Shown piece after piece: positions 35,923-61,449 of a stretch of DNA of 64,000 nt. Both the position numbers and the translations under genes were made by a program. Position 1 is the stretch's first letter; each line of letters starts with the position of its first letter. The DNA comes from a virus (taxonomy: Duplodnaviria > Heunggongvirae > Uroviricota > Caudoviricetes): positions 157,489 to 221,488 of IMG/VR virus record IMGVR_UViG_3300028914_000001. One strand, given 5' to 3'. The notes under the pieces are model-generated. The model did not search any database and was not told the DNA's origin. It saw nothing but the letters and a program-made list of their open reading frames with translations.

Positions 35923-35969
35923 ATAACTTCCATTAGTTTACTTTCTACATTAAAATACATTATTCCAAC

Positions 35970-50259: not shown

Positions 50260-51804
50260 ATGAATTCGAACCTTGAACTTTCTTTACGTATTTTAGACCA
50301 GTTTTCCGAAACTGACAGCCGTTACTCTTTCGATAAAATGCTGATTCCTAACAGTATTTTTGACTTCATGATGGCTAAAGCGGAAAATCTCAAAGGTGTG
50401 GAAAGGAAAAACTTCGAATTTTTGCTGTATATAGTCAACACGGTATATCGCCGCTACCAGATAGCCTTCAACCTGGCTACCAAGCATAACTGGAAAATCG
50501 ATATTGACAAGTGGGCAGTCCCCATTTACTCCAAAATCTATGACAGGATACTCGGTTCCAACTACTTGGAATACGTACACATTCTCGAACAATGGGGCAT
50601 CATTGGCCGTAGCCGTTCCTACATCAAGGGAAGCAAGGATATTCCGGGAAAATGCAAGCATTATTGGTTCACACCCAAGTTTTTAACCTATGTTCAGCGT
50701 TATTTGCACACTAGGGCACAGGAAGAAGCCGGAGATATCAAGAAAAGAAAGGGTGGTGTCCGTGTAGTCATGGTGACCAACCCCCGTCTTTATCGAAAAT
50801 TGGCCGAAAGAGCCGAAGAAGTTCATTCAGAACAAATGAACATGCCTGAAATTAAGGAACTTTACGAAGACTTGACGCATTTTAGCATCGATGAAGACGA
50901 AAGTTACGATATTTTGGGCAATCTTGTCGATAGCGGTTCGATTCCCGTCGAAAGATTGACCTCTGAAATGAACAAAGTCAAGCTTTTCAATAGCTACACG
51001 ACCGATAAATACGCTCTTTACTGCAAACGTGACCCGTATGGCCGTGTTCATACTAACATCACCCAGTTGAAAAAAGAGGTTAGAAAGAGCTGCATCTACT
51101 GTGATGGCAAGCCGACGGTCGAAATCGACATCAAGAGTTCTCAGGGTGCATTCTTGTATCGTGTTCTTGACCGATACATTTCTAATTTTGATGGCCGAGA
51201 ACATATTGTGATTTCTCCTAAGGGAGAGAATTCGGAAGCCTACTGGAATTCCTTTGAGGAAGACGAATGCATCTCGGCATTCCACTCCGAATTGGATAGA
51301 TACAGAAATCTGCTTGTTTCTGGTGGTTTGTATGAATACTTCCTTAACTATGTAAACAAAACTTTGCATACGAATGTAGACCGTAATAAGGTAAAGAAAG
51401 AATTCCTTACATGCCTTTTCTGCGGACGTTTCTATTCTAAGAAAAAGCATAAGCTTGTCGAAGCCATTCAGAAGCTCTGGAAGGAAGCATTCCCTAACCT
51501 CTACAAGGCAATCCAGATTATCAAGCGTGGGCACTACTCTGAGTTGGCCCATGAGCTGCAACGTACTGAAAGCCACCTCATTTTCAGCGTGGTTTATCGC
51601 AGAATCAAGGACGAATTGCATTGCCCTGTTTGTACCGTACACGATAGCATCATAGTGTCCTCCGATGTTGCTACCCGTGCCAAGCAAATCTTCGACGACG
51701 CTTTGAAGGAATTGGAAATCCCTACCTTTACCGAGCAGGAACAGATGGAAGCAACGATTGAAGACACCTTTATTGCTGACAAGACCTTGACAACCAAGAT
51801 TTAA
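50260..51804 (+). CDS. wHTH plus PolA/T7-RNAP-superfamily palm-domain protein without exonuclease domains
   Basis: DPYGRVH (DxxGR), motif A EIDIKSSQ, motif B RNKVKKEFLTCLF, LQRTES, motif C TVHDSI. Confidence 0.7.
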   Translation: MNSNLELSLRILDQFSETDSRYSFDKMLIPNSIFDFMMAKAENLKGVERKNFEFLLYIVNTVYRRYQIAFNLATKHNWKIDIDKWAVPIYSKIYDRILGSNYLEYVHILEQWGIIGRSRSYIKGSKDIPGKCKHYWFTPKFLTYVQRYLHTRAQEEAGDIKKRKGGVRVVMVTNPRLYRKLAERAEEVHSEQMNMPEIKELYEDLTHFSIDEDESYDILGNLVDSGSIPVERLTSEMNKVKLFNSYTTDKYALYCKRDPYGRVHTNITQLKKEVRKSCIYCDGKPTVEIDIKSSQGAFLYRVLDRYISNFDGREHIVISPKGENSEAYWNSFEEDECISAFHSELDRYRNLLVSGGLYEYFLNYVNKTLHTNVDRNKVKKEFLTCLFCGRFYSKKKHKLVEAIQKLWKEAFPNLYKAIQIIKRGHYSELAHELQRTESHLIFSVVYRRIKDELHCPVCTVHDSIIVSSDVATRAKQIFDDALKELEIPTFTEQEQMEATIEDTFIADKTLTTKI

Positions 51805-51836: not shown

Positions 51837-52826
51837 ATGGATATCCAATACTTCAAAAACCCTAACATGAACGTGCTCAACTGCACACACTATGACCTTG
51901 ATGGAGTGGGGTCCCATCTTATCATCAAGACAATCTTTCCTAACGCAAAGTACGCCAAGATGTACTACGGCAAGGATAATGACCTCTTGACATTCAACAC
52001 TATTCCTAACAAGGAACAGTACAACGCCATCATCTTTACCGATTATACGCCAGTAAAATTCATGGACAGTGTTCGTGCAACTGGCATTCCTACCATGGTT
52101 CTTGACCACCATGCTAGCGCATCTGATTTCAACGACCCGGCTAATGCAATCATTATCGACAAGTCTGCTTGCGGCGCCCGTCTTGCCTATGATTTCTACC
52201 GTGATGTCAAGGATATTTCCCACCTCGAAGAACTCATCAATTATATCGACACGTTTGACCGTTGGATTAGAACCGATAAGGCACGATTCGAACATGCATA
52301 CAAGATGAACATGCTGTTCAAGGACAAGTACAAGCTCAATTTCGATGCTTGGATTGAAGCCTACAAGGATGGCCATACCGAATTCACGGAAGATGAAATT
52401 GCTTTCCTCAACCAGATTGACAGTGAAGTTGAACAGACATACAATAATCTGCAGTTTACAGACCTTCCTGGTGGCGGTGTATTGACCCGTTGCGACAAGC
52501 ATTCGACAGAAGTCGGTATTCGTATTCAGGACAGCGAAAAGTATAACTACTGGATTAACATCTATAATAACAAGCGTGAAAACAAAATCGGTTTGATGTT
52601 CCGTGGATATAACCCGAACATTTCCTTTGACAAGTTTGCTAGAAAGATTGAAATTCATGTTCCTGGCTCGAACATGGGTGGACACGGACTGTCATGTGGA
52701 GGCAAGGCCGATAATGAGACTGATGCAATGCGAATGGTCGCCATGTCAATCCCGTACATTCAGCAGCAGATTGACGGCACCTTTGTACAGGACGAAGAAA
52801 TGCTGAGTAAGCCTGACGAAATATAA
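51837..52826 (+). CDS. DHH-family phosphoesterase
   Basis: THYDLDG, FTD, LDHH, SACGA, GGH; AATAAACTAT upstream at 51803. Confidence 0.88.
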   Translation: MDIQYFKNPNMNVLNCTHYDLDGVGSHLIIKTIFPNAKYAKMYYGKDNDLLTFNTIPNKEQYNAIIFTDYTPVKFMDSVRATGIPTMVLDHHASASDFNDPANAIIIDKSACGARLAYDFYRDVKDISHLEELINYIDTFDRWIRTDKARFEHAYKMNMLFKDKYKLNFDAWIEAYKDGHTEFTEDEIAFLNQIDSEVEQTYNNLQFTDLPGGGVLTRCDKHSTEVGIRIQDSEKYNYWINIYNNKRENKIGLMFRGYNPNISFDKFARKIEIHVPGSNMGGHGLSCGGKADNETDAMRMVAMSIPYIQQQIDGTFVQDEEMLSKPDEI

Positions 52827-52856
52827 ACTCTTGGTGCAAAAACCCAAGCAGTCAAC

Positions 52857-53984
52857 ATGAAAATTCTACAAATCAGGACGGTGCTTGCAACCGTCCTTCT
52901 TTCTTTATGTATCGGCCAGGTTTATGCCTGGTCTCTTCTATCCAACGCTGTCAACTCGGTTCTAAACCACGACATGTCGTTCGCCTTCTCTCTTGCCATC
53001 CTGTTCCTCGGCCTGTCTGCAGCTTTCATGGGAAAGTTCGTGGAAAGAAACCCGAAGGCGACCTACATCATGTCCGTGATTTTCTTCGTTGCCGGATTCC
53101 TCCTAAGTGGATTCGCTTGCAGCGTAGGAAGCGTCGGGATGTTCTATGCATCGTATGGCGTACTCTTCGGATGCGCATGCGGTCTCGGGTATGTAGCCCC
53201 AATCAAGACGCTGATGCTCTACTTCCGTCATAACAAGGCTGTCGCATCTGCCATTGCCATCCTATCGTTCGGGTTGGCAAAGTCTGTTGCAAGTCCGCTG
53301 TACACATACCTTACCTCAACCTATGCTATCGACCAAGTGTTCTATCTCCTTGCTCTAATCTATACTGTTCCGCTTATCGTGACATCGTTCCTGTTCAGGA
53401 AGTTCCCGGTCAATTACAAACCACCTATGGTCGAGACAATCGATATCGGAAAGACGGTTAGAACATTGCCTTACATTTCAATCTGGTTGTTCTTCTTCCT
53501 CAACATCGCTTGCGGCCTAGCCTTCATCAGTCAGGAAGCTCAACTATATTCCCACTATGGCGTGGCAATCGGGATGGCAACCTTGCTGTGTACATTGAGT
53601 GCTGTTTTCAATGCTGGCGGGCGTTTTGGGTTTGCTTGGATTAGCGACAAGTTCGGTCGATACGTTCCGTACATCATCCTGTTCGCATTGAGTTCCCTGC
53701 TGTGCTTGATTAACTTTGGATTTGCTGGACTGGGCCTGTTCGTTGTCAGCGTCATGCTCATCAACGCTTGTTATGGCGGAGGTTTCTCCGCTTTGCCTGC
53801 ACTGCTCGCAAGCAAGTACGGGATAACGAATACATCAACCATCCATTCTCTGACATTGAGCGCTTGGGGTATTGCAGGAATTGCTTCACTCTTCTTGAAG
53901 CAGCTCCCGGTTGATACCTTGTTCATCACATGCTTCATACTGTATGGCTTCAACCTTCTGTTGCTGTACCTGAGCAAACGATAA
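52857..53984 (+). CDS. MFS transporter, oxalate/formate antiporter (OFA)-like
   Basis: GQVYAWS, AFSLAILFLGLSA, GLGYVAPIKTL, NAGGRF..SDKFGR, YGGGFS; about 11-12 hydrophobic segments. Confidence 0.85.
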   Translation: MKILQIRTVLATVLLSLCIGQVYAWSLLSNAVNSVLNHDMSFAFSLAILFLGLSAAFMGKFVERNPKATYIMSVIFFVAGFLLSGFACSVGSVGMFYASYGVLFGCACGLGYVAPIKTLMLYFRHNKAVASAIAILSFGLAKSVASPLYTYLTSTYAIDQVFYLLALIYTVPLIVTSFLFRKFPVNYKPPMVETIDIGKTVRTLPYISIWLFFFLNIACGLAFISQEAQLYSHYGVAIGMATLLCTLSAVFNAGGRFGFAWISDKFGRYVPYIILFALSSLLCLINFGFAGLGLFVVSVMLINACYGGGFSALPALLASKYGITNTSTIHSLTLSAWGIAGIASLFLKQLPVDTLFITCFILYGFNLLLLYLSKR

Positions 53985-53997
53985 ACTATATGTAATT

Positions 53998-54639
53998 ATG
54001 AATGACTTACTGAAAACCTATAAGACGTTTGTCGATTCGGTCTATGCCAACTTTGGCAAGGCTGCTGCAAAACCCATTATCAGAGAAGGGTTCAAAGCGT
54101 TATGTGAAGCTATTGACGATAACATGGTCAAGCTGGTCGAGTACCTAAATCAACCAGCTGCTACGCCAATACATAACTCTGATGGCGTTCTGATGACAGG
54201 GCGTAAGGCTTTCAACTACTTCGAGAACGCCTCTATAAAAGAAGGAATGTGGGGTGTTCATTTTACCTACCTAGAACCATTCTATTATATATTGGAAGAG
54301 GGGTTTTCTAACGGAACGACTAATTTGGACCAACTTGCCTATACAGGAAACTACGAAGGTGGGCGAGGAAAGGATGGATGGTTCTTTGCACTTCCATTAG
54401 ATAGCAAATACTTGAAGTCGTATGACATGGGTTACGGTGACTACGGGTTCCTTATAAAGACTGATTGCGTATTGGTTGACCACTTGGGCGATGGTGATAC
54501 TGAGATGTTGTTCCGTGGCAGTGATGTAATTGAAATGATACCTTTCTATTACGACGAAGACTCCGAGATGTGGATATCAAAGTCCGACGGGGCTGAATAC
54601 GCTACTCTTGAAGAGTTAATCGCTAAGTACGCCAAATAA
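53998..54639 (+). CDS. Leader-bearing late protein with an ADP-ribosyltransferase-like signature
   Basis: Leader FVDSV...FKALCE; VHFT..ILEEGF..WFFA..YG..DTE; GATAAACTAT at 53980. Confidence 0.45.
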   Translation: MNDLLKTYKTFVDSVYANFGKAAAKPIIREGFKALCEAIDDNMVKLVEYLNQPAATPIHNSDGVLMTGRKAFNYFENASIKEGMWGVHFTYLEPFYYILEEGFSNGTTNLDQLAYTGNYEGGRGKDGWFFALPLDSKYLKSYDMGYGDYGFLIKTDCVLVDHLGDGDTEMLFRGSDVIEMIPFYYDEDSEMWISKSDGAEYATLEELIAKYAK

Positions 54640-54659: not shown

Positions 54660-54689
54660 AGCCGACCTGCAATAGTGGTCGGCTTTTTT
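54660..54689 (+). terminator. Intrinsic terminator
   Basis: agccgacc...ggtcggctttttt. Confidence 0.75.
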
Positions 54690-54740
54690 GTTGCTGGAAT
54701 AATATATTTTAAGCTAGAATAAAGATTGGAGGAAACCGAT

Positions 54741-55193
54741 ATGGTATCGGCTGGCCTTTTGATAACAGACGGCGAGAAGTTCCTTGTGGAGCTGCCGTTG
54801 CACCAGACTCCTGGTGAACACCATTTTGATTTGCCCAAGGGTCACGTCGAGGATTTCGACAGTGACTTTAGGGGCACTGCGTTTAGAGAAGCTAAGGAAG
54901 AGACTGGTTACGATTTTGACTCTTATAAGGACCGTGCATACGCATTGTGTAATGAACCTGTCAGCTACATCAAGGGCAAGCAGATTGTCCTGTACCGTCT
55001 CGACCTGACGAAAGAAGAGATGCCTAGTATCGGCGAGTACAAGTGCCAGAGTTTCTTCCCGGACAAGAGGACGGGCAAGAATGTTCCTGAGGTTATTGGC
55101 TATGCCTACAAGCCGCTTTCCGAAATCAGGAAGTGGCTCTTCAAGGGTTATAGCCGCACGTTTGACAGGCTCGGTATTTTCAAGGAAGGATAA
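54741..55193 (+). CDS. nudE: Nudix hydrolase, T4 NudE-like (no leader)
   Basis: DLPKGHVE...AFREAKEETG Nudix box; GGAGG before ATG 54741. Confidence 0.85.
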   Translation: MVSAGLLITDGEKFLVELPLHQTPGEHHFDLPKGHVEDFDSDFRGTAFREAKEETGYDFDSYKDRAYALCNEPVSYIKGKQIVLYRLDLTKEEMPSIGEYKCQSFFPDKRTGKNVPEVIGYAYKPLSEIRKWLFKGYSRTFDRLGIFKEG

Positions 55194-55693
55194 TGTCACT
55201 GTTTGAAGTCATCGTCTATTCGCTCGGGATATTCCCCATGCTCCTTGTACTCGGAATGATTGCGAGGGAGTGGTGGGTGTTCCGTAAGAATAGGGTTAAG
55301 GGAAGCTCTAAGACCAAGGGCGAGCCGCCTACACCAGTTCTCCCGAAGGCAGAGTTAGCAAAGTCTGATTTCGATGACATAGCGAAGAAAAAGCGGGAGG
55401 TCGAACTCGCCGCAGAGATACGCCGCATCCTTGCCAAGTCGGTTACACGTCAGGGCGAAGGTGAATACGACTTCGACGCAAACAAGCTTACCGCAGTTGA
55501 ATACCAGCTTCTTTTGAACTATGCCAAATCCCGCAAGGAGGAACTTAATTCCTATGTGGAGATGTGCAACAAGATAAGTGAAGAACCCGAAGCTGATTGC
55601 AGCGAGGAAATGAAATTGATTTACGGAAACATCGGCCTTATCGAATTGGCTAAATTCGTCGAGGCTTTCTCTGACAAAGCAAATCGTTGGTAA
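55193..55693 (+). CDS. Hypothetical membrane-anchored protein
   Basis: N-terminal hydrophobic helix followed by WWVFRK. Confidence 0.6.
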   Translation: MSLFEVIVYSLGIFPMLLVLGMIAREWWVFRKNRVKGSSKTKGEPPTPVLPKAELAKSDFDDIAKKKREVELAAEIRRILAKSVTRQGEGEYDFDANKLTAVEYQLLLNYAKSRKEELNSYVEMCNKISEEPEADCSEEMKLIYGNIGLIELAKFVEAFSDKANRW

Positions 55694-57063
55694 TGGAGGC
55701 AAAAATGAACAACGATAAATACCTAAACATAATGGAATTCCTGGCAAAGGCGCTTTATGATGTCGGTGCCACGGTAAAGCATATCTACAAGGAAGAGCAT
55801 CCTGCGATTCCGCCTATCCCGACGACGCCGCAGCCAGTGCCGCCTAGTCCGCCTAGGTACACTGTCGAACAGGAAATCCCTTTCCCGCCAGCGCCGAATT
55901 GCCCGCCACCCGTGGTGGTCAGACAGCCAGAACGCTATGGTGGTCTTGGTTTCAAACCGCTTATGAAGCCGAAGGAACCCTGGTTTGATAAGCAACGTCC
56001 GATACCTGGCCCGAACCAGTTCTGCAACATGCAGGACTACACCTTCCAGCAGTTGAACGGTAATGTCCCGGCGGAAGCTACCATCTTGGCTGACCCGTTC
56101 ATGAAACCGAACCAGAAAGTGAATCTTGAATCGAATCCCGATTATTTTGGCTTTGACCATAACAAGAACACCCCAATACGGATGAAAACCATGGTTGACA
56201 CCGCTGATGGACACCCAGAGCCGATTGGCAATCTGATTAAGGAACACCCGGCGGCTCTTGACGCAGCTAAAACCAATGTGCAGAAGATGAATCCATCCCT
56301 CGGTATTTGTCAGAACCTGAGCAACGGTAAGATAGAACGGGAAATCGAGTCCCTTACCAAAGCGTTGAACGATATGACTCTTATGGGCAAACCGGGTTCT
56401 ATGAGCGAGGTGTCCAATAAGCTCGTCGGCCTAACTTTTGCTCGTACCTATCTCAACTTCCTGCCGAATGAAACTGGAAAGAAATTCATTGTTAACGAAC
56501 TCAAAGATAATCCAGTTGCACTCAAGGCTTTCAACGATGCCGTCGACGAGAATGAAGGAATGAGAGCTAAGGCTATTGCTGAGCGTCAATATGAAAGTCA
56601 ACGTGTCATGTCGCAACGTGGTATCAGTATCGGAAAGGATTTAAAAGCCTCGATGGACAATTTCTATAGCCCTAAGCCAGATGAACTTATGGCTAAGCAG
56701 GTAGACTTTCCGACAACTCCGCAAGACTTAATCAAAGCTGCCATGACAAAAAAATACCTGAAAAGCATCGACGCAAAGAAAACCGTAGGTAAAATGACCG
56801 ATATGCTGGATACATGCAACAACTTGGCTAAATCTCCCGCAATACCTGGAAACGAGGCAATGAAGGAAGCCGAAATGTCGCTGACCGAGGAAAACTTGAA
56901 GAAGGATGCATCGGAGATAAAGGCAGATGACCGTCCAGTAATACCTGAAAAAGAGGAAACTCCCGATGCTCCGGCTGAACAGCCGAAAGAAAACGTCAAG
57001 GAAAAGAAATTGAAAGCGAAAGCTAAGGAACAGAAAACATTAGCCAATTCTAACAAGGAGTAA
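55687..57063 (+). CDS. Proline-rich hypothetical protein
   Basis: 458-aa ORF with PPIPTTPQPVPPSPP; start uncertain. Confidence 0.55.
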   Translation: MVMEAKMNNDKYLNIMEFLAKALYDVGATVKHIYKEEHPAIPPIPTTPQPVPPSPPRYTVEQEIPFPPAPNCPPPVVVRQPERYGGLGFKPLMKPKEPWFDKQRPIPGPNQFCNMQDYTFQQLNGNVPAEATILADPFMKPNQKVNLESNPDYFGFDHNKNTPIRMKTMVDTADGHPEPIGNLIKEHPAALDAAKTNVQKMNPSLGICQNLSNGKIEREIESLTKALNDMTLMGKPGSMSEVSNKLVGLTFARTYLNFLPNETGKKFIVNELKDNPVALKAFNDAVDENEGMRAKAIAERQYESQRVMSQRGISIGKDLKASMDNFYSPKPDELMAKQVDFPTTPQDLIKAAMTKKYLKSIDAKKTVGKMTDMLDTCNNLAKSPAIPGNEAMKEAEMSLTEENLKKDASEIKADDRPVIPEKEETPDAPAEQPKENVKEKKLKAKAKEQKTLANSNKE

Positions 57064-57066
57064 AAA

Positions 57067-57336
57067 ATGGCAACGAAGAAAACGAAGACCTATAACTTTG
57101 GAAAAGCACTTGAAGCCTTGAAGGGCGGTAAAACTATCCGTCGTCAGGGTTGGAACGGAGTCGGTATCTTTATCGCTCTCCAAGTTCCCGATAAGAAGTC
57201 CAAGATGAGCCAGCCGTACCTCTACATCGACACCCTCGGTTTGCAGACGACAAACCCGAAGGCTCCGAAGGGTCGTGTACCGTGGGCACCGAGCCAGACT
57301 GACCTGCTTGCCGAAGACTGGGAAATCATCAAGTAG
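57067..57336 (+). CDS. tad2: DUF2829 / Thoeris anti-defence Tad2-like sponge
   Basis: NFGKALEALKGGK.IRR.GWNG...PY.YI...VPW.PSQTDLLAEDW. Confidence 0.85.
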   Translation: MATKKTKTYNFGKALEALKGGKTIRRQGWNGVGIFIALQVPDKKSKMSQPYLYIDTLGLQTTNPKAPKGRVPWAPSQTDLLAEDWEIIK

Positions 57337-57355
57337 GAATTTTCCCCACACAAAT

Positions 57356-57383
57356 AAAGCCTCCGTGTTACACGGGGGCTTTT
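57356..57383. terminator. Bidirectional intrinsic terminator
   Basis: aaagcctccgtg-tta-cacgggggcttt between convergent genes. Confidence 0.75.
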
Positions 57384-57406
57384 CTGATGTTTCACGTGGA
57401 ACAATT

Positions 57407-57991
57407 TTAGAACTTGATACCTTCCCTCTTGAAGGTCTTGTCAAACTCTGGCCATAGCCACTTGCCTATTTCCTTCAATGGAAGATATTCGTAGGAGCAT
57501 GCTTCTGGCATTGCGGCGTTCTTCTTAGGGTCATGGAAGTATGACTTGCAGGAATAAGATGTCAACGGTGGAAGCTCTTTCAGATTTATCCTGTAAAGCA
57601 TCAGGTTGTTTCCTTTACGGAATGGCACCTGCTTGCGGAAAATTCCCTTGGCATCGTTGTAATACTTATGCCAGTTGTACCCGGTTTCTTCCAACGCTTC
57701 CCTGAATGCGGCATCTTTTACACTTTCGCCATCGTTCTCGACGTGGCCTTTCGGTAGGTCATACTGGTGTGGCTTTCCCTTCTTGTTTCCTGTCGGAAGT
57801 TCTGCAAGGAATACTTCACCATCGGTGATGAGAAGTCCAGACGAGCATGACGGATGTTCCTCATTGTTTCTCGGGTCTGCAAATTCAAGCAGGGTCTTGG
57901 CTAAATCCTTGACAGCTTCAAACTGTGCCTTTGATGCAAGTATATGCTTGGCTGACTCGTTGAATGTATCTATGACATATTGTGGGGTCAT
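57407..57991 (-). CDS. Nudix hydrolase paralogue with a 47-aa N-terminal extension containing the leader
   Basis: DLPKGHVE...AFREALEETG; leader FNESA...LAKTLLE; late box at 58017-58026. Confidence 0.85.
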   Translation of the reverse strand: MTPQYVIDTFNESAKHILASKAQFEAVKDLAKTLLEFADPRNNEEHPSCSSGLLITDGEVFLAELPTGNKKGKPHQYDLPKGHVENDGESVKDAAFREALEETGYNWHKYYNDAKGIFRKQVPFRKGNNLMLYRINLKELPPLTSYSCKSYFHDPKKNAAMPEACSYEYLPLKEIGKWLWPEFDKTFKREGIKF

Positions 57992-58016: not shown

Positions 58017-58026
58017 ATAGTTTATA
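58017..58026 (-). promoter_or_regulatory. Late promoter box TATAAACTAT
   Basis: Exact motif 25 nt upstream of ATG 57991. Confidence 0.75.
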
Positions 58027-58040
58027 TTCCAAAAAAGACT

Positions 58041-58074
58041 AAAAAAGGAGCCTGCCTTGCGGCAAGCTCCCTTT
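58041..58074 (-). terminator. Terminator after the major capsid gene
   Basis: aaaaaaggagc-ctgcc-ttgc-ggca-agctcc hairpin. Confidence 0.7.
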
Positions 58075-58100
58075 CAGTTCCGTTTAAGGAATTCGAGTGA

Positions 58101-59594
58101 TTACCACTCTTCTTCCTTAGCAGCCGTACCGAACGGACGGTCGAGCGTGTGGCCAGCCTTGTCTGCAACACCAACGGTGTCGAGAGTTACGCCCACAGTC
58201 GGACCTTCGTTAGATTCCCACGGGATGTCACCAGTGAAGGAAACACCGAGGAGGTCGTTGTTCACGAAGCGAACAACACGGTAGAACAAGCCGCAACCGA
58301 GCAAGTTGCTGACAATGGCGTAACGGCTCTTCACGATGAGACGTGGGCTTCCGTCTTCCTGTCCTGCAGTCTTGCAGAAGATATACGGGATGTACGGCAT
58401 GAAGATGATACCAGATTCGCCCTGACGTGGTCCCTTGTAACCAACGAGAGCGTAGTCCTGCCAAGAATAGATATCCTGGTAGAGCTTAATCTGACCGTTC
58501 AGGAGAGAACCAGCGTCGGAAACGCCACCACCCGGCTGAACAGCGGCATCTGTACCGAGGTAAGTCGGGATATAGATACCAGAGTTGAGAGTAGAGATTG
58601 CAGCAACGATGCTCGGAGAGCAGATTGCAAAGTTACCAGAGCCCATGCGGGTCGTAAGAGAAATCTTACGGGCAACTGCGATAATCGTGTTCACGATACC
58701 GCCAGCAATCTTTTCAGCGACCCAACGGCCATCCTGGAAGTTTGCGTGACCAGAGAGGTCAACGGTGATAGCGGCTTCACCACCAAACATCGGGTTCTGA
58801 GCGACAGACACCATAGCAGCGAGGATTTCACGGTCGATTTCCTGCTGAATCTCAAATTGGAGACCTTCGAGCAAGAGTGCTTCAACGTCTTGGCCATGGG
58901 CTGCCGCCATATCCTGTTGAAGTTCCAAGGTGTAATGGCTCTTGATAGCCTTCGTACCAACACGGATAGCACCACTTACGACCTTGATAGAGGCCTTCTT
59001 GATGTTGTAGTGGCCAGTGTTTTCATCGTAGTAGTCACCAGTACCCGGCTGGTCGCCAAAGTGGTTGGTGAGGTAAGCGTTACCAGTCTTGTTGGCAGAG
59101 TTCATTGCAGCGCCATCATAAGACGGACCACCGAACGTGCCTTCACCGTAGTTGGAGAGCATTTCGCCAGCCATCGTTGTCCACGGGTTGAAGGTGCCCT
59201 TCACACCAGTGTGGTCAGACACGAGGTCATAACCAATTTCCTTCTTGAGACCCTTACGGAAACCAACAGTCTTCGGAGCTTCGTCGTCATAGAGGAAACG
59301 AAGTGCGAAGTAAATTCCGTTAGGAGTTGTGGTCGGGATGGTAGCTACGGTCTGCATAGCCAAGAGGTCAGGGAACTGACGACGTACCAGCGGCAAAGCG
59401 TACTGCTGGTATTGGGCTACGTCAGCACTGACGTTAGCAGATTCTGGGAGGAAACCCTTGTTGAGCTTGCACTGGGTTTCAAGAAGTGTGGAAACCACAG
59501 CAGCTTCAGCACGGGACTTGAGCTTACGACCAAGGTTGGATTCCAAAATTGGAGCCCACTTGCTCGTAGCTGACTTAGGTCTGAACTGTTGCAT
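58101..59594 (-). CDS. gp23: Major capsid protein, T4 gp23-like
   Basis: KWAPILES, LPLVRRQFP, GIYFALR, YTLELQQDM.A.HG.D.E, EIDREI, GNFAICSP, PYIP, KSRYA; start revised to ATG 59594 (59612 is an alternative). Confidence 0.95.
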   Translation of the reverse strand: MQQFRPKSATSKWAPILESNLGRKLKSRAEAAVVSTLLETQCKLNKGFLPESANVSADVAQYQQYALPLVRRQFPDLLAMQTVATIPTTTPNGIYFALRFLYDDEAPKTVGFRKGLKKEIGYDLVSDHTGVKGTFNPWTTMAGEMLSNYGEGTFGGPSYDGAAMNSANKTGNAYLTNHFGDQPGTGDYYDENTGHYNIKKASIKVVSGAIRVGTKAIKSHYTLELQQDMAAAHGQDVEALLLEGLQFEIQQEIDREILAAMVSVAQNPMFGGEAAITVDLSGHANFQDGRWVAEKIAGGIVNTIIAVARKISLTTRMGSGNFAICSPSIVAAISTLNSGIYIPTYLGTDAAVQPGGGVSDAGSLLNGQIKLYQDIYSWQDYALVGYKGPRQGESGIIFMPYIPYIFCKTAGQEDGSPRLIVKSRYAIVSNLLGCGLFYRVVRFVNNDLLGVSFTGDIPWESNEGPTVGVTLDTVGVADKAGHTLDRPFGTAAKEEEW

Positions 59595-59693
59595 AATGTT
59601 ATCCTGTGCCATCTGGCACTGTTTGAGTTCTACTTTAAGTTTATTGAGGTATTTCGACAAAAAATTTTTTACCTCAAAATCTGCATTGAAATG

Positions 59694-59745: not shown

Positions 59746-61449
59746 CTAGAAGGCTCCTGTCTCGGGTGGCGGGGCCATTCCGCCGAAGTCGCCCAAGGAC
59801 TCGCCTTCGCCGCTATCGGCATCGGTTTCTTCACCGAGGAGAACCTTCTGTTCATGCTCACGCCACTTGCGGTTCTGAGTGAGGTCGGCATCTGAAATAC
59901 CGAGACCGTAACGGAGACAGTATTCTTGGGAAAGCGGGTTGTTCGGGGCATCGTCCTTCACAGCAAATTCCATCATGCTCTGGAATACTGCGAGACGGGT
60001 AGTCCATACGTCGGCATCGATGTAGCTCTGGAAACCATTGCTTCGCTTGAACTTGATGTCGAAGTTCTCTTCCAACTTGATATTCTCGGTAAATTCTTTC
60101 CTTGTATTGAGCACCATGATGAAGAGTCTTACGAGAGCTTGTTCGAACGGTGTCTGGTAACGGTCAACGAGTCTAGCGAATGCTACTTCCGCCTGAGTAA
60201 CTTCACCAACCTTACCGTTGGAGTAGTTTACACTGTCGCCAGCCAATGCTGTGATACGTCCAGGAGGCACCATCAAGGCGTTGACGAGGTTTCTCTTGAA
60301 GAATTTGAGGTCGTCGATGTTGCCTAGCTGGTCACCGCCAGGTAGTCTTTCAATGGTTGAACCTGACGAACCGCCCTGAACAGGGATGATGAAGTGTTCC
60401 GATAGGCCGATTGCCTTACCCCAGTTGGTAATTTCACCCGTAGTGGCGTTATAGTCAATCTGACGGCTGAACATCTTGGCCTGTTCCTTCATTGTCGCTT
60501 CGGCCTGCGGTTTAGGCTGGCCAGCCACGTCAACTTTTAGAATCATCTTTTCGGAGCCCCAGAGAACACGGTACATAACAACGCTATCTTCAATCGTATT
60601 CAGTTGGTTGTGTGCCTTCACTGCTGGTTCGAGGATTGAACGGGGGTCGTTCACGCCGCCTGGGCCGTAAAGGTCGAGGGAGAGGAACAAAATCTGGTTC
60701 GGAGAGTAGTCGATGTAATTCTTGCTGGTATGTGCGTATGTTCCAGTAAGCATTTGACGATAGCCGATAATCAAGTTATCCTGGACGACCACAATCATAT
60801 TTTCGCCCGGTAACATGTTCAGTCCGACGATTTCATTGGTTTCCTCGTCATATACGACTTCGAGGAAGAGTCGGCCTTCGATGAGCATCTTTCTCATGTA
60901 CTGCCAAGCAGTCTTCTGGAACTTGAAAATCTTCCTGAGCACATCCCTTTTGAAGATTGTCTGCAAGCTCATCTTTGTCACTTCGGCAATTTCAGAATAT
61001 TCGTTGACCTGCAAGCTGCAAATGTCGCCCTTGTCGTCCTTATAGATTGCCTCATTGCAAATCTGGGTCAGAGACTCGTTCACCTCCGAGCGTGTGGCGA
61101 TGATGTTGTACTTCAACATGCGTTCCACGTTGTTTCGCCAGTAGAGTTGCACCTGATTTTCGGCGATGGTATCTTGAACCTTGGTGGGGTCAATCTGCCC
61201 GTCGTTAATCATGATGGTCGGCATGTAGGTGGAGAATCCGTCAGGTGACATACCGTTCGGGTACATCATCTGCTGGACGCCCTGTCCTACCGCATTCCTG
61301 GACCTTGATATTTCATGGTTCAGGTCTTCTCCGTTGAACATTCGGTCAAAAAGTTCGCCTCTCGGGTTATTTTCGCCGTAGTCTCTCACATGCGTCATGA
61401 CCATGGACGCAATGTTTTCGGGTCTTTTCTTTTTCGATGAAAAAAGCAT
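59746..61449 (-). CDS. gp20: Portal protein, T4 gp20-like
   Basis: EVNESL..ICNEAI, IEGRLF, SILEPA.K..NQL..IEDS.V.YR, LPGG.QLG.IDD..FF...L..ALMVP. Confidence 0.93.
   Translation of the reverse strand: MLFSSKKKRPENIASMVMTHVRDYGENNPRGELFDRMFNGEDLNHEISRSRNAVGQGVQQMMYPNGMSPDGFSTYMPTIMINDGQIDPTKVQDTIAENQVQLYWRNNVERMLKYNIIATRSEVNESLTQICNEAIYKDDKGDICSLQVNEYSEIAEVTKMSLQTIFKRDVLRKIFKFQKTAWQYMRKMLIEGRLFLEVVYDEETNEIVGLNMLPGENMIVVVQDNLIIGYRQMLTGTYAHTSKNYIDYSPNQILFLSLDLYGPGGVNDPRSILEPAVKAHNQLNTIEDSVVMYRVLWGSEKMILKVDVAGQPKPQAEATMKEQAKMFSRQIDYNATTGEITNWGKAIGLSEHFIIPVQGGSSGSTIERLPGGDQLGNIDDLKFFKRNLVNALMVPPGRITALAGDSVNYSNGKVGEVTQAEVAFARLVDRYQTPFEQALVRLFIMVLNTRKEFTENIKLEENFDIKFKRSNGFQSYIDADVWTTRLAVFQSMMEFAVKDDAPNNPLSQEYCLRYGLGISDADLTQNRKWREHEQKVLLGEETDADSGEGESLGDFGGMAPPPETGAF

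Follow-up and report, generated by a model that had tools for sequence, protein, structure and literature searches.

Results

Two Nudix genes, one with a leader and a late box

The window analyzed here is a 64-kb stretch of DNA, bases 157489-221488 of the 422,150-bp virus record IMGVR_UViG_3300028914_000001, a phage genome with direct terminal repeats and a completeness rating of complete. It holds two paralogous genes for Nudix hydrolases (superfamily PF00293) of the phage T4 NudE.1 type, here called NudA and NudB. NudB alone carries an N-terminal leader, common to a set of proteins of this phage, and NudB alone lies behind an exact copy of the phage's late promoter box. What these differences may say about packaging of NudB into the phage head is the subject of this report. 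The main features are listed below, with lengths in amino acids (aa) or nucleotides (nt).

54741..55193 (+): NudA, leaderless NudE.1-type Nudix hydrolase, 150 aa; Pfam NUDIX E 1e-7, REAKEETG intact
57407..57991 (-): NudB, leader-bearing NudE.1-type Nudix hydrolase, 194 aa; Pfam NUDIX E 1e-9
57410..57847 (-): Nudix core of NudB, codons 49-194; Nudix box G82-Y105, catalytic E101/E102; full-length alignment with T4 NudE.1
57884..57991 (-): NudB leader, codons 1-36, with LLE36 then Phe37, a predicted prohead-protease site; leader profile E 1e-12
58026-58018 (-): late box TATAAACTA, 35 nt before the NudB ATG
58042..58075 (-): terminator after the capsid gene; 15-pair stem (7 GC), then a T-run
57356..57382 (no strand assigned): hairpin terminator between the convergent Tad2 and NudB genes; 12-pair stem (7 GC), may serve both strands
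58101..59615 (-): major capsid protein, T4 gp23 family; Pfam Gp23 E 7e-64, propeptide with hydrophobic-x-Glu sites
59746-61449 (-): portal, a T4-type head gene

An earlier reading of the DNA had taken the two Nudix genes for paralogues, and they are. NudA and NudB share 66 of 146 residues (45% identity, E 3e-43 in BLASTP), and in a maximum-likelihood tree of 71 family members (FastTree) the NudA and NudB types are sister groups inside one 10-member clade with support 0.99, NudB being on the longer branch. The pair thus arose by duplication inside this phage lineage. In one contig of a distant clade (L038) a single strand carries both genes with about 0.9 kb between them, in keeping with a tandem origin.

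Both proteins keep R-E-A-x-E-E-T-G-Y, and the catalytic glutamates align throughout (E101/E102 in NudB, E54/E55 in NudA, E64/E65 in T4). The first part of the Nudix box is one residue longer than the canonical box (GX5EX7REUXEEXGU), reading G-x6-E in NudB, with Asp at position +6 in NudA and in T4 NudE.1. Towards the C-terminus, C148, S150, F152, P162 and E163 are invariant in the family alignment and make up a C-x-S-x-F ... P-E motif. These features (the longer box, an invariant REAxEETG, the C-terminal motif and the catalytic Glu-Glu pair) are common to T4 NudE.1, which aligns over its full length at about 30% identity. A tblastn search found 441 phage records, and the matches listed come from T4-type phages, in which they are NudE/Nudix genes with about 32% identity, T4 e.1 (nudE.1) included. 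Judged from these alignments, both copies belong to the T4 NudE.1 clade and have their catalytic residues intact. The T4 gene differs in being a single leaderless copy; here there are two copies, one of them with a 47-residue extension and a targeting-type leader.

An AlphaFold2 (AF2) model of NudB (pLDDT, predicted local distance difference test, 92) has the Nudix alpha/beta/alpha fold. In a Foldseek search with this model the nearest solved folds were Dcp2, YmfB, RppH and Ap4A hydrolases (E 1e-7 to 1e-6), and among viral predicted structures phage Nudix proteins came first, with IME08 NudE as third-best match. Sequence and fold searches of the PDB gave generic Nudix matches alone and no substrate-specific call. 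The substrates originally proposed for enzymes of this type are borne out by the literature: T4 NudE.1 cleaves ADP-ribose, diadenosine triphosphate (Ap3A) and flavin adenine dinucleotide (FAD) (Xu et al. 2002, cited in PMC9503650). Nicotinamide adenine dinucleotide (NAD) and NAD-capped RNA are further substrates in vitro, and the double mutation of E64/E65 abolishes its activity (10.1101/2024.04.04.588121).

The late box and the NudB transcription unit

The late box of T4, TATAAATA, is absent from the 64-kb window. The phage has a box of its own, TATAAACTA, of which there are 53 copies in the genome and 12 in the window; upstream of genes its enrichment is about 15-fold, and its usual place is some 30-40 nt before the ATG. 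An exact copy precedes the baseplate wedge gene and the variant AATAAACTT precedes the capsid gene, and "late" appears, by analogy, to be a reasonable label for the box. It had been claimed that the second Nudix copy alone has an exact late box at 58017 and that it sits right after the capsid gene. Both statements hold: TATAAACTA is found at 58026-58018 (the coordinate 58017 fits the 10-mer TATAAACTAT), NudA has no late box, and the Gp23-family gene stops at 58101, 109 nt from NudB. This gap is occupied by the 15-pair terminator and the late box, and NudB is a one-gene unit between two terminators. The box (core ATAAACTA) is kept upstream of NudB in 12 close orthologous loci with diverging flanks. 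No Shine-Dalgarno sequence precedes the NudB ATG at 57991, and several other genes driven by TATAAACTA are likewise without a clear one.

The leader of NudB

A leader profile, built from the shared N-termini of proteins behind TATAAACTA boxes, detects 23 proteins when run against every stop-to-stop frame (3,615) of the 422-kb genome. Scores below zero are given to NudA, to the capsid protein and to the product of the gene at 53998-54639. Against a profile built without NudB and its orthologue, NudB scores 20.8 bits (E 5e-5), and at the level of sequence it is a true but divergent member of the leader family. The alignment pairs residue 2 of NudA with residue 49 of NudB, and the 47-aa extension claimed for the second copy alone is thus there as described. 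An exact TATAAACTA stands 15-39 nt upstream of 16 of the 23 leader genes, and a box with one mismatch precedes two others.

The alignment of the 23 leaders is nearly free of gaps, with F10 invariant and a regular hydrophobic spacing. A hydrophobic-x-Glu motif closes the leader in one column in 18 of the aligned sequences (CLE, LFE, CFE, IYE, and LLE36 in NudB), which agrees, on this sequence evidence, with the original prediction of processing near E36. A second site, F-x-E, is present in NudB near residue 12. The NudB orthologue of 77% identity has a more typical leader and the same TLLE/F junction. In the AF2 model the NudB leader forms two helices, residues 3-15 and 21-38, predicted with lower confidence than the core.

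Two observations bear on the extension. First, NudB offers no in-frame ATG, GTG or TTG between codon 1 and codon 100, a codon that already belongs to the catalytic helix; the leader must therefore be translated, and a start downstream of it, which would have undone the original prediction, is not available. Secondly, in nearly all of the matches listed for the Nudix family (248 cluster representatives, mostly leaderless and 135-170 aa long) homology begins at about residue 49 of NudB, and the leader is thus an addition.

In other metagenomic contigs, of which some are 350-420 kb long, the leader profile matches at least 301 proteins, and the tag is a trait of the lineage and not an oddity of this genome. 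The bodies attached to it include SLT transglycosylase, Amidase_2 and peptidoglycan-binding proteins, a cargo of wall enzymes that fits proteins leaving the virion and crossing the cell wall. Searches of Pfam and PHROG gave no family for most of the leader cargo.

A prohead protease gene of the Peptidase_S77/T4 gp21 family (genome 154046-154771, minus strand; PF03420 E 8e-14) lies just beyond the edge of the window. The capsid propeptide sites PILE, LLE and FLPE/S align with PLLE, IFE and FLTE/A of T4 gp23, of which FLTE/A is the known maturation site. Since the sites stand at the T4 positions, the specificity of the protease appears to be T4-like and matches the ends of the leaders. The 245-aa protein encoded directly upstream of the protease has the best-conserved leader of all and is the most conserved leader carrier in metagenomes. 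Directly downstream of the protease is a helical, charged, scaffold-like protein of 317 aa, much as gp22 follows gp21 in T4. The whole order (leader-bearing 245-aa protein, gp21-type protease, helical 317-aa scaffold candidate; G000:C1:153083-155805, minus strand) is T4-like. A complex prediction with the leader alignment and the 317-aa protein scored 0.02 and was counted neither way.

Conservation and selection

The NudA/NudB region had no megablast match among 50,697 phage records, and the lineage therefore has no sequenced close relative among isolates. Orthologues of NudB are found in 14 IMG/VR contigs (77-95% identity), in all of which the gene is full length, has its leader and lies downstream of the capsid gene. 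NudA is also present in every related locus long enough to show it. The ratio of nonsynonymous to synonymous polymorphism (pN/pS) is 0.08 for NudA (7 orthologues), and for NudB (eight orthologues) it is 0.25 in the leader, 0.17 in the linker and 0.03 in the core. Over the second helix of the leader and the LLEFADPRN junction, close orthologues are almost invariant and show a single K/T change. Both copies are retained under purifying selection.

The stretch between the two genes is variable among relatives, and the 166-aa and 458-aa genes within it diverge or drop out. In one related contig (L037:7440-11640) NudA is split by about 3.7 kb that hold a Mutator-family (IS256-like) transposase and an Eco57I-type N6-adenine DNA methyltransferase. 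NudB is intact there despite the split, and this contig is a natural knockout of the untagged copy.

The NudA locus

NudA lies at the head of an apparent operon on the opposite strand, with the following features.

54660..54689 (+): hairpin and T-run, terminator-like, upstream of NudA; kept in the nine close loci that hold NudA, not in the distant L037 and L038
54696..54713 (+): AT-rich box GGAATAATATATTTTAAG, conserved; candidate non-late promoter of the NudA operon
54728..54732 (+): GGAGG ribosome-binding site, 8 nt before the NudA ATG
55193..57063 (+): two genes (166 aa, with a hydrophobic N-terminus, and about 452-458 aa) that overlap or abut, packed tightly after NudA
57067..57336 (+): Tad2-family gene (anti-Thoeris sponge family), last of the apparent NudA operon; Pfam Tad2-like E 2e-22

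The core of the AT-rich box, AATATATTTTA, has at most one change in 11 of 11 orthologous loci, the distant clade included. The same layout (a hairpin, a T-run, GGAATAAT(A/G)TATTTTAA and a gene about 38 nt further on) is found at window positions 35966 (-) and 54696 (+), and the AT-rich box after a hairpin may represent a second, non-late promoter class of this phage. Looser copies of the layout occur elsewhere in the genome. Two other candidates upstream of NudA were set aside. The word GTTGCTG was dropped as a promoter element, as its 104 genome copies are almost all intragenic, and a sigma-70 reading (TTGCTG-18-TAGAAT) was rejected because orthologues retain the AT-rich box but not TAGAAT.

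Pfam and PHROG searches gave no family for the 166-aa and 452-458-aa genes behind NudA. The last gene, at 57067-57336, is by its sequence a full-length member of the Tad2 family (SPO1 Gp34.65; PDB 8sme, 8v3e, 9eib), and it matches the solved structures 9eib, 8v3e and 8sme over its full length with E values of 4e-13 to 1e-11. Its place in the apparent NudA operon puts the leaderless Nudix in the context of ADP-ribose-derived signals. The gene is, however, absent from all 14 related loci. Among these relatives it is thus present in this one genome only, is no conserved partner of either Nudix, and looks like a recent accessory insertion.

Discussion

NudB as a predicted head protein

The evidence leans, with some reserve on our part, towards the most economical reading, in which NudB is made late, gains access to the prohead by means of its leader, is cut after E36 and travels in the head, with NudA as the cytoplasmic copy. 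According to this hypothesis the leader, some 36 residues in two helices and common to about 23 otherwise unrelated proteins, would take NudB into the core of the assembling head, where the gp21-family prohead protease would cut it after Leu-Leu-Glu36 and possibly also at the F-x-E12 site. The mature enzyme (about 158 residues, slightly basic) would stay in the DNA-filled head and leave with the DNA into the next host. There it may cut ADP-ribose-containing or other nucleoside diphosphate-X (NDP-X) substrates before phage gene expression begins, and the candidates are ADP-ribose, NAD, NAD-capped RNA and diadenosine polyphosphates (ApnA). NudA would be expressed within the infected cell, driven by a non-late promoter-like element of its own, and would carry out the same chemistry in the cytoplasm. 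The calculated isoelectric point of the NudB core is 8.65 as against 5.84 for NudA, a difference of 6 charge units towards the basic side, and such a core would fit a location beside DNA.

The hypothesis has a precedent in T4, where a capsid-targeting sequence directs internal proteins to the head and gp21 removes propeptides (PMC9958956, PMC5694885). As with the T4 proteins IPI-III and Alt, an N-terminal tag is found here on unrelated proteins, with a late type of promoter, a hydrophobic-x-Glu end and a gp21-family protease, and in both phages the cargo includes an enzyme related to NAD or ADP-ribose (Alt in T4). The two tags differ in size and in reach: about 10 residues in T4 against a two-helix leader of 36 residues here, and about 23 predicted cargo proteins here.

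Several observations weigh against this reading and call for some caution. The T4 capsid-targeting sequence is a tag of the MKTYQEFIAE type, and the leader, compared with it by eye, shows no evident likeness to it; at best the leader works like the T4 tag and is not homologous to it. The leader of NudB is among the most divergent of the 23, and its predicted cut is followed by Phe, at a position held in most other leaders by Ala, Ser, Gly or Asp. In the clade of 77% identity the 115 nt upstream of NudB contain no late box, and NudB apparently lies directly behind another gene. Other leader-bearing cargo is partly acidic and not all basic. Finally, the major capsid protein is at most about 30% identical to that of any sequenced isolate.

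Alternatives to head packaging

The pair could also be explained by timing alone. Both copies would then be cytoplasmic, NudA acting earlier and NudB late, and the leader would be a module for association or oligomerization of late proteins that plays no part in delivery. Of the contrasts between the copies the difference in promoter is the most solid, both are under strong purifying selection, and T4 NudE.1, the closest characterized relative, is cytoplasmic as far as known. A similar division of labor is seen in poxviruses, with their early D9 and late D10 Nudix proteins. However, a difference in timing requires no leader, and this leader is also found on wall-degrading enzymes and on the product of the gene adjoining the prohead protease; moreover, most of the leaders end in a protease motif at a fixed distance. 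We therefore consider timing alone an unlikely explanation.

A second alternative accepts that NudB enters the prohead but not that it is an injected effector. The leader could hold the enzyme inactive up to its cleavage, as in a zymogen, NudB could act in or around the assembling head, or it could be degraded and expelled with the scaffold. Many of the T4 core proteins that gp21 cleaves are indeed broken up and leave the head (PMC5694885), and the second F-x-E site near residue 12 would suit such a fate. Against this, no hydrophobic-x-Glu site was noted inside the conserved Nudix core, and the core pN/pS of 0.03 is what would be expected of an enzyme that stays folded and active. This fate is in our judgment improbable, more so than a difference in timing. 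That the extension is no leader at all, by chance resemblance or because the true start lies downstream, might be suggested by the missing Shine-Dalgarno sequence at 57991 and by the modest score of NudB when left out of the profile, but it is in effect refuted by the lack of an alternative start before codon 100 and by the pN/pS of the leader, given also that the extension is kept at the protein level in 14 contigs, that the leader is more typical in the 77% orthologue, and that other TATAAACTA-driven genes are equally without a clear Shine-Dalgarno sequence.

Possible role after delivery, and significance

If NudB is packaged as we propose, its task in the next host may be, as the earlier reading of the DNA suggested, to destroy nucleotide signals or to remove ADP-ribose at entry. 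Contextual support for ejection and for an action on immune signals is weak: it consists of the Tad2 gene in the apparent NudA operon, in this genome only, and of KptA/Tpt1 fusions in some family members. It is conceivable, though we think it doubtful, that the phage has a two-stage defense against ADP-ribose-based immune signals, in which injected NudB would first, ahead of phage gene expression, destroy Thoeris-type ADP-ribose-derived signals or NAD caps and NudA, sometimes together with the Tad2 sponge, would follow. Should this be so, NudB would provide the first injected Nudix anti-signal enzyme open to experiment, with an untagged control built in.

The idea of head-packaged NudE-like enzymes is not new in kind. 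Iyer et al. 2022 inferred that T4-like NudE proteins are packaged and injected against NAD/ADP-ribose-based immunity, on the basis of their position in late clusters and of fusions to MuF, portal or capsid-processing peptidase (PMC9503650). In our searches one PHROG portal family matched the Nudix box of NudB. The present case differs from that prediction in that the proposed route is a cleavable leader and not fusion to a head protein, and in that the leaderless twin offers an internal control. What is new is the matched pair of tagged and untagged Nudix genes in one genome, and the long two-helix leader. If the packaging hypothesis is correct, the pair would be a natural test of the leader tag (the same enzyme in the same genome, with and without tag and late promoter), and would directly support the published prediction that injected Nudix enzymes blunt NAD/ADP-ribose-based immunity. 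Taken together, the leader profile and the TATAAACTA box also allow probable head cargo to be listed by a simple rule in this uncultured lineage of rumen huge phages of about 420 kb.

Additional observations

Upstream of NudA, genes for a DHH/DHHA1 phosphoesterase (329 aa) and an MFS transporter (375 aa) occupy positions 51837-53984 (+) and adjoin NudA in all relatives that reach so far. A transporter gene is unusual in a phage. A near-consensus sigma-70 promoter (TTGACA-17-TATATT) stands before them at 51787. They are followed in this genome only by a 213-aa gene at 53998-54639 (+), which has a one-mismatch late box, GATAAACTA, 18 nt before its ATG. One public-database homologue of the 317-aa scaffold candidate is labelled as from a Prevotella sp. 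metagenome-assembled genome, a weak hint at the host.

The NudE.1-like family includes some unusual architectures. In one member (P0130) the Nudix domain is fused to a KptA/Tpt1 RNA 2'-phosphotransferase, and in two others (P0034 and P0055) it is embedded in proteins of 1,103 and 1,802 aa with nucleotidyltransferase-like domains. A further member (P0008) has a C-terminal tail ending in AFVDPRMK, which resembles the NudB junction EFADPRN. The phage genome itself encodes a third Nudix domain (G000:C1:324138-324545, plus strand), in an open frame of 352 aa; it is longer than NudA and NudB and unrelated to the pair.

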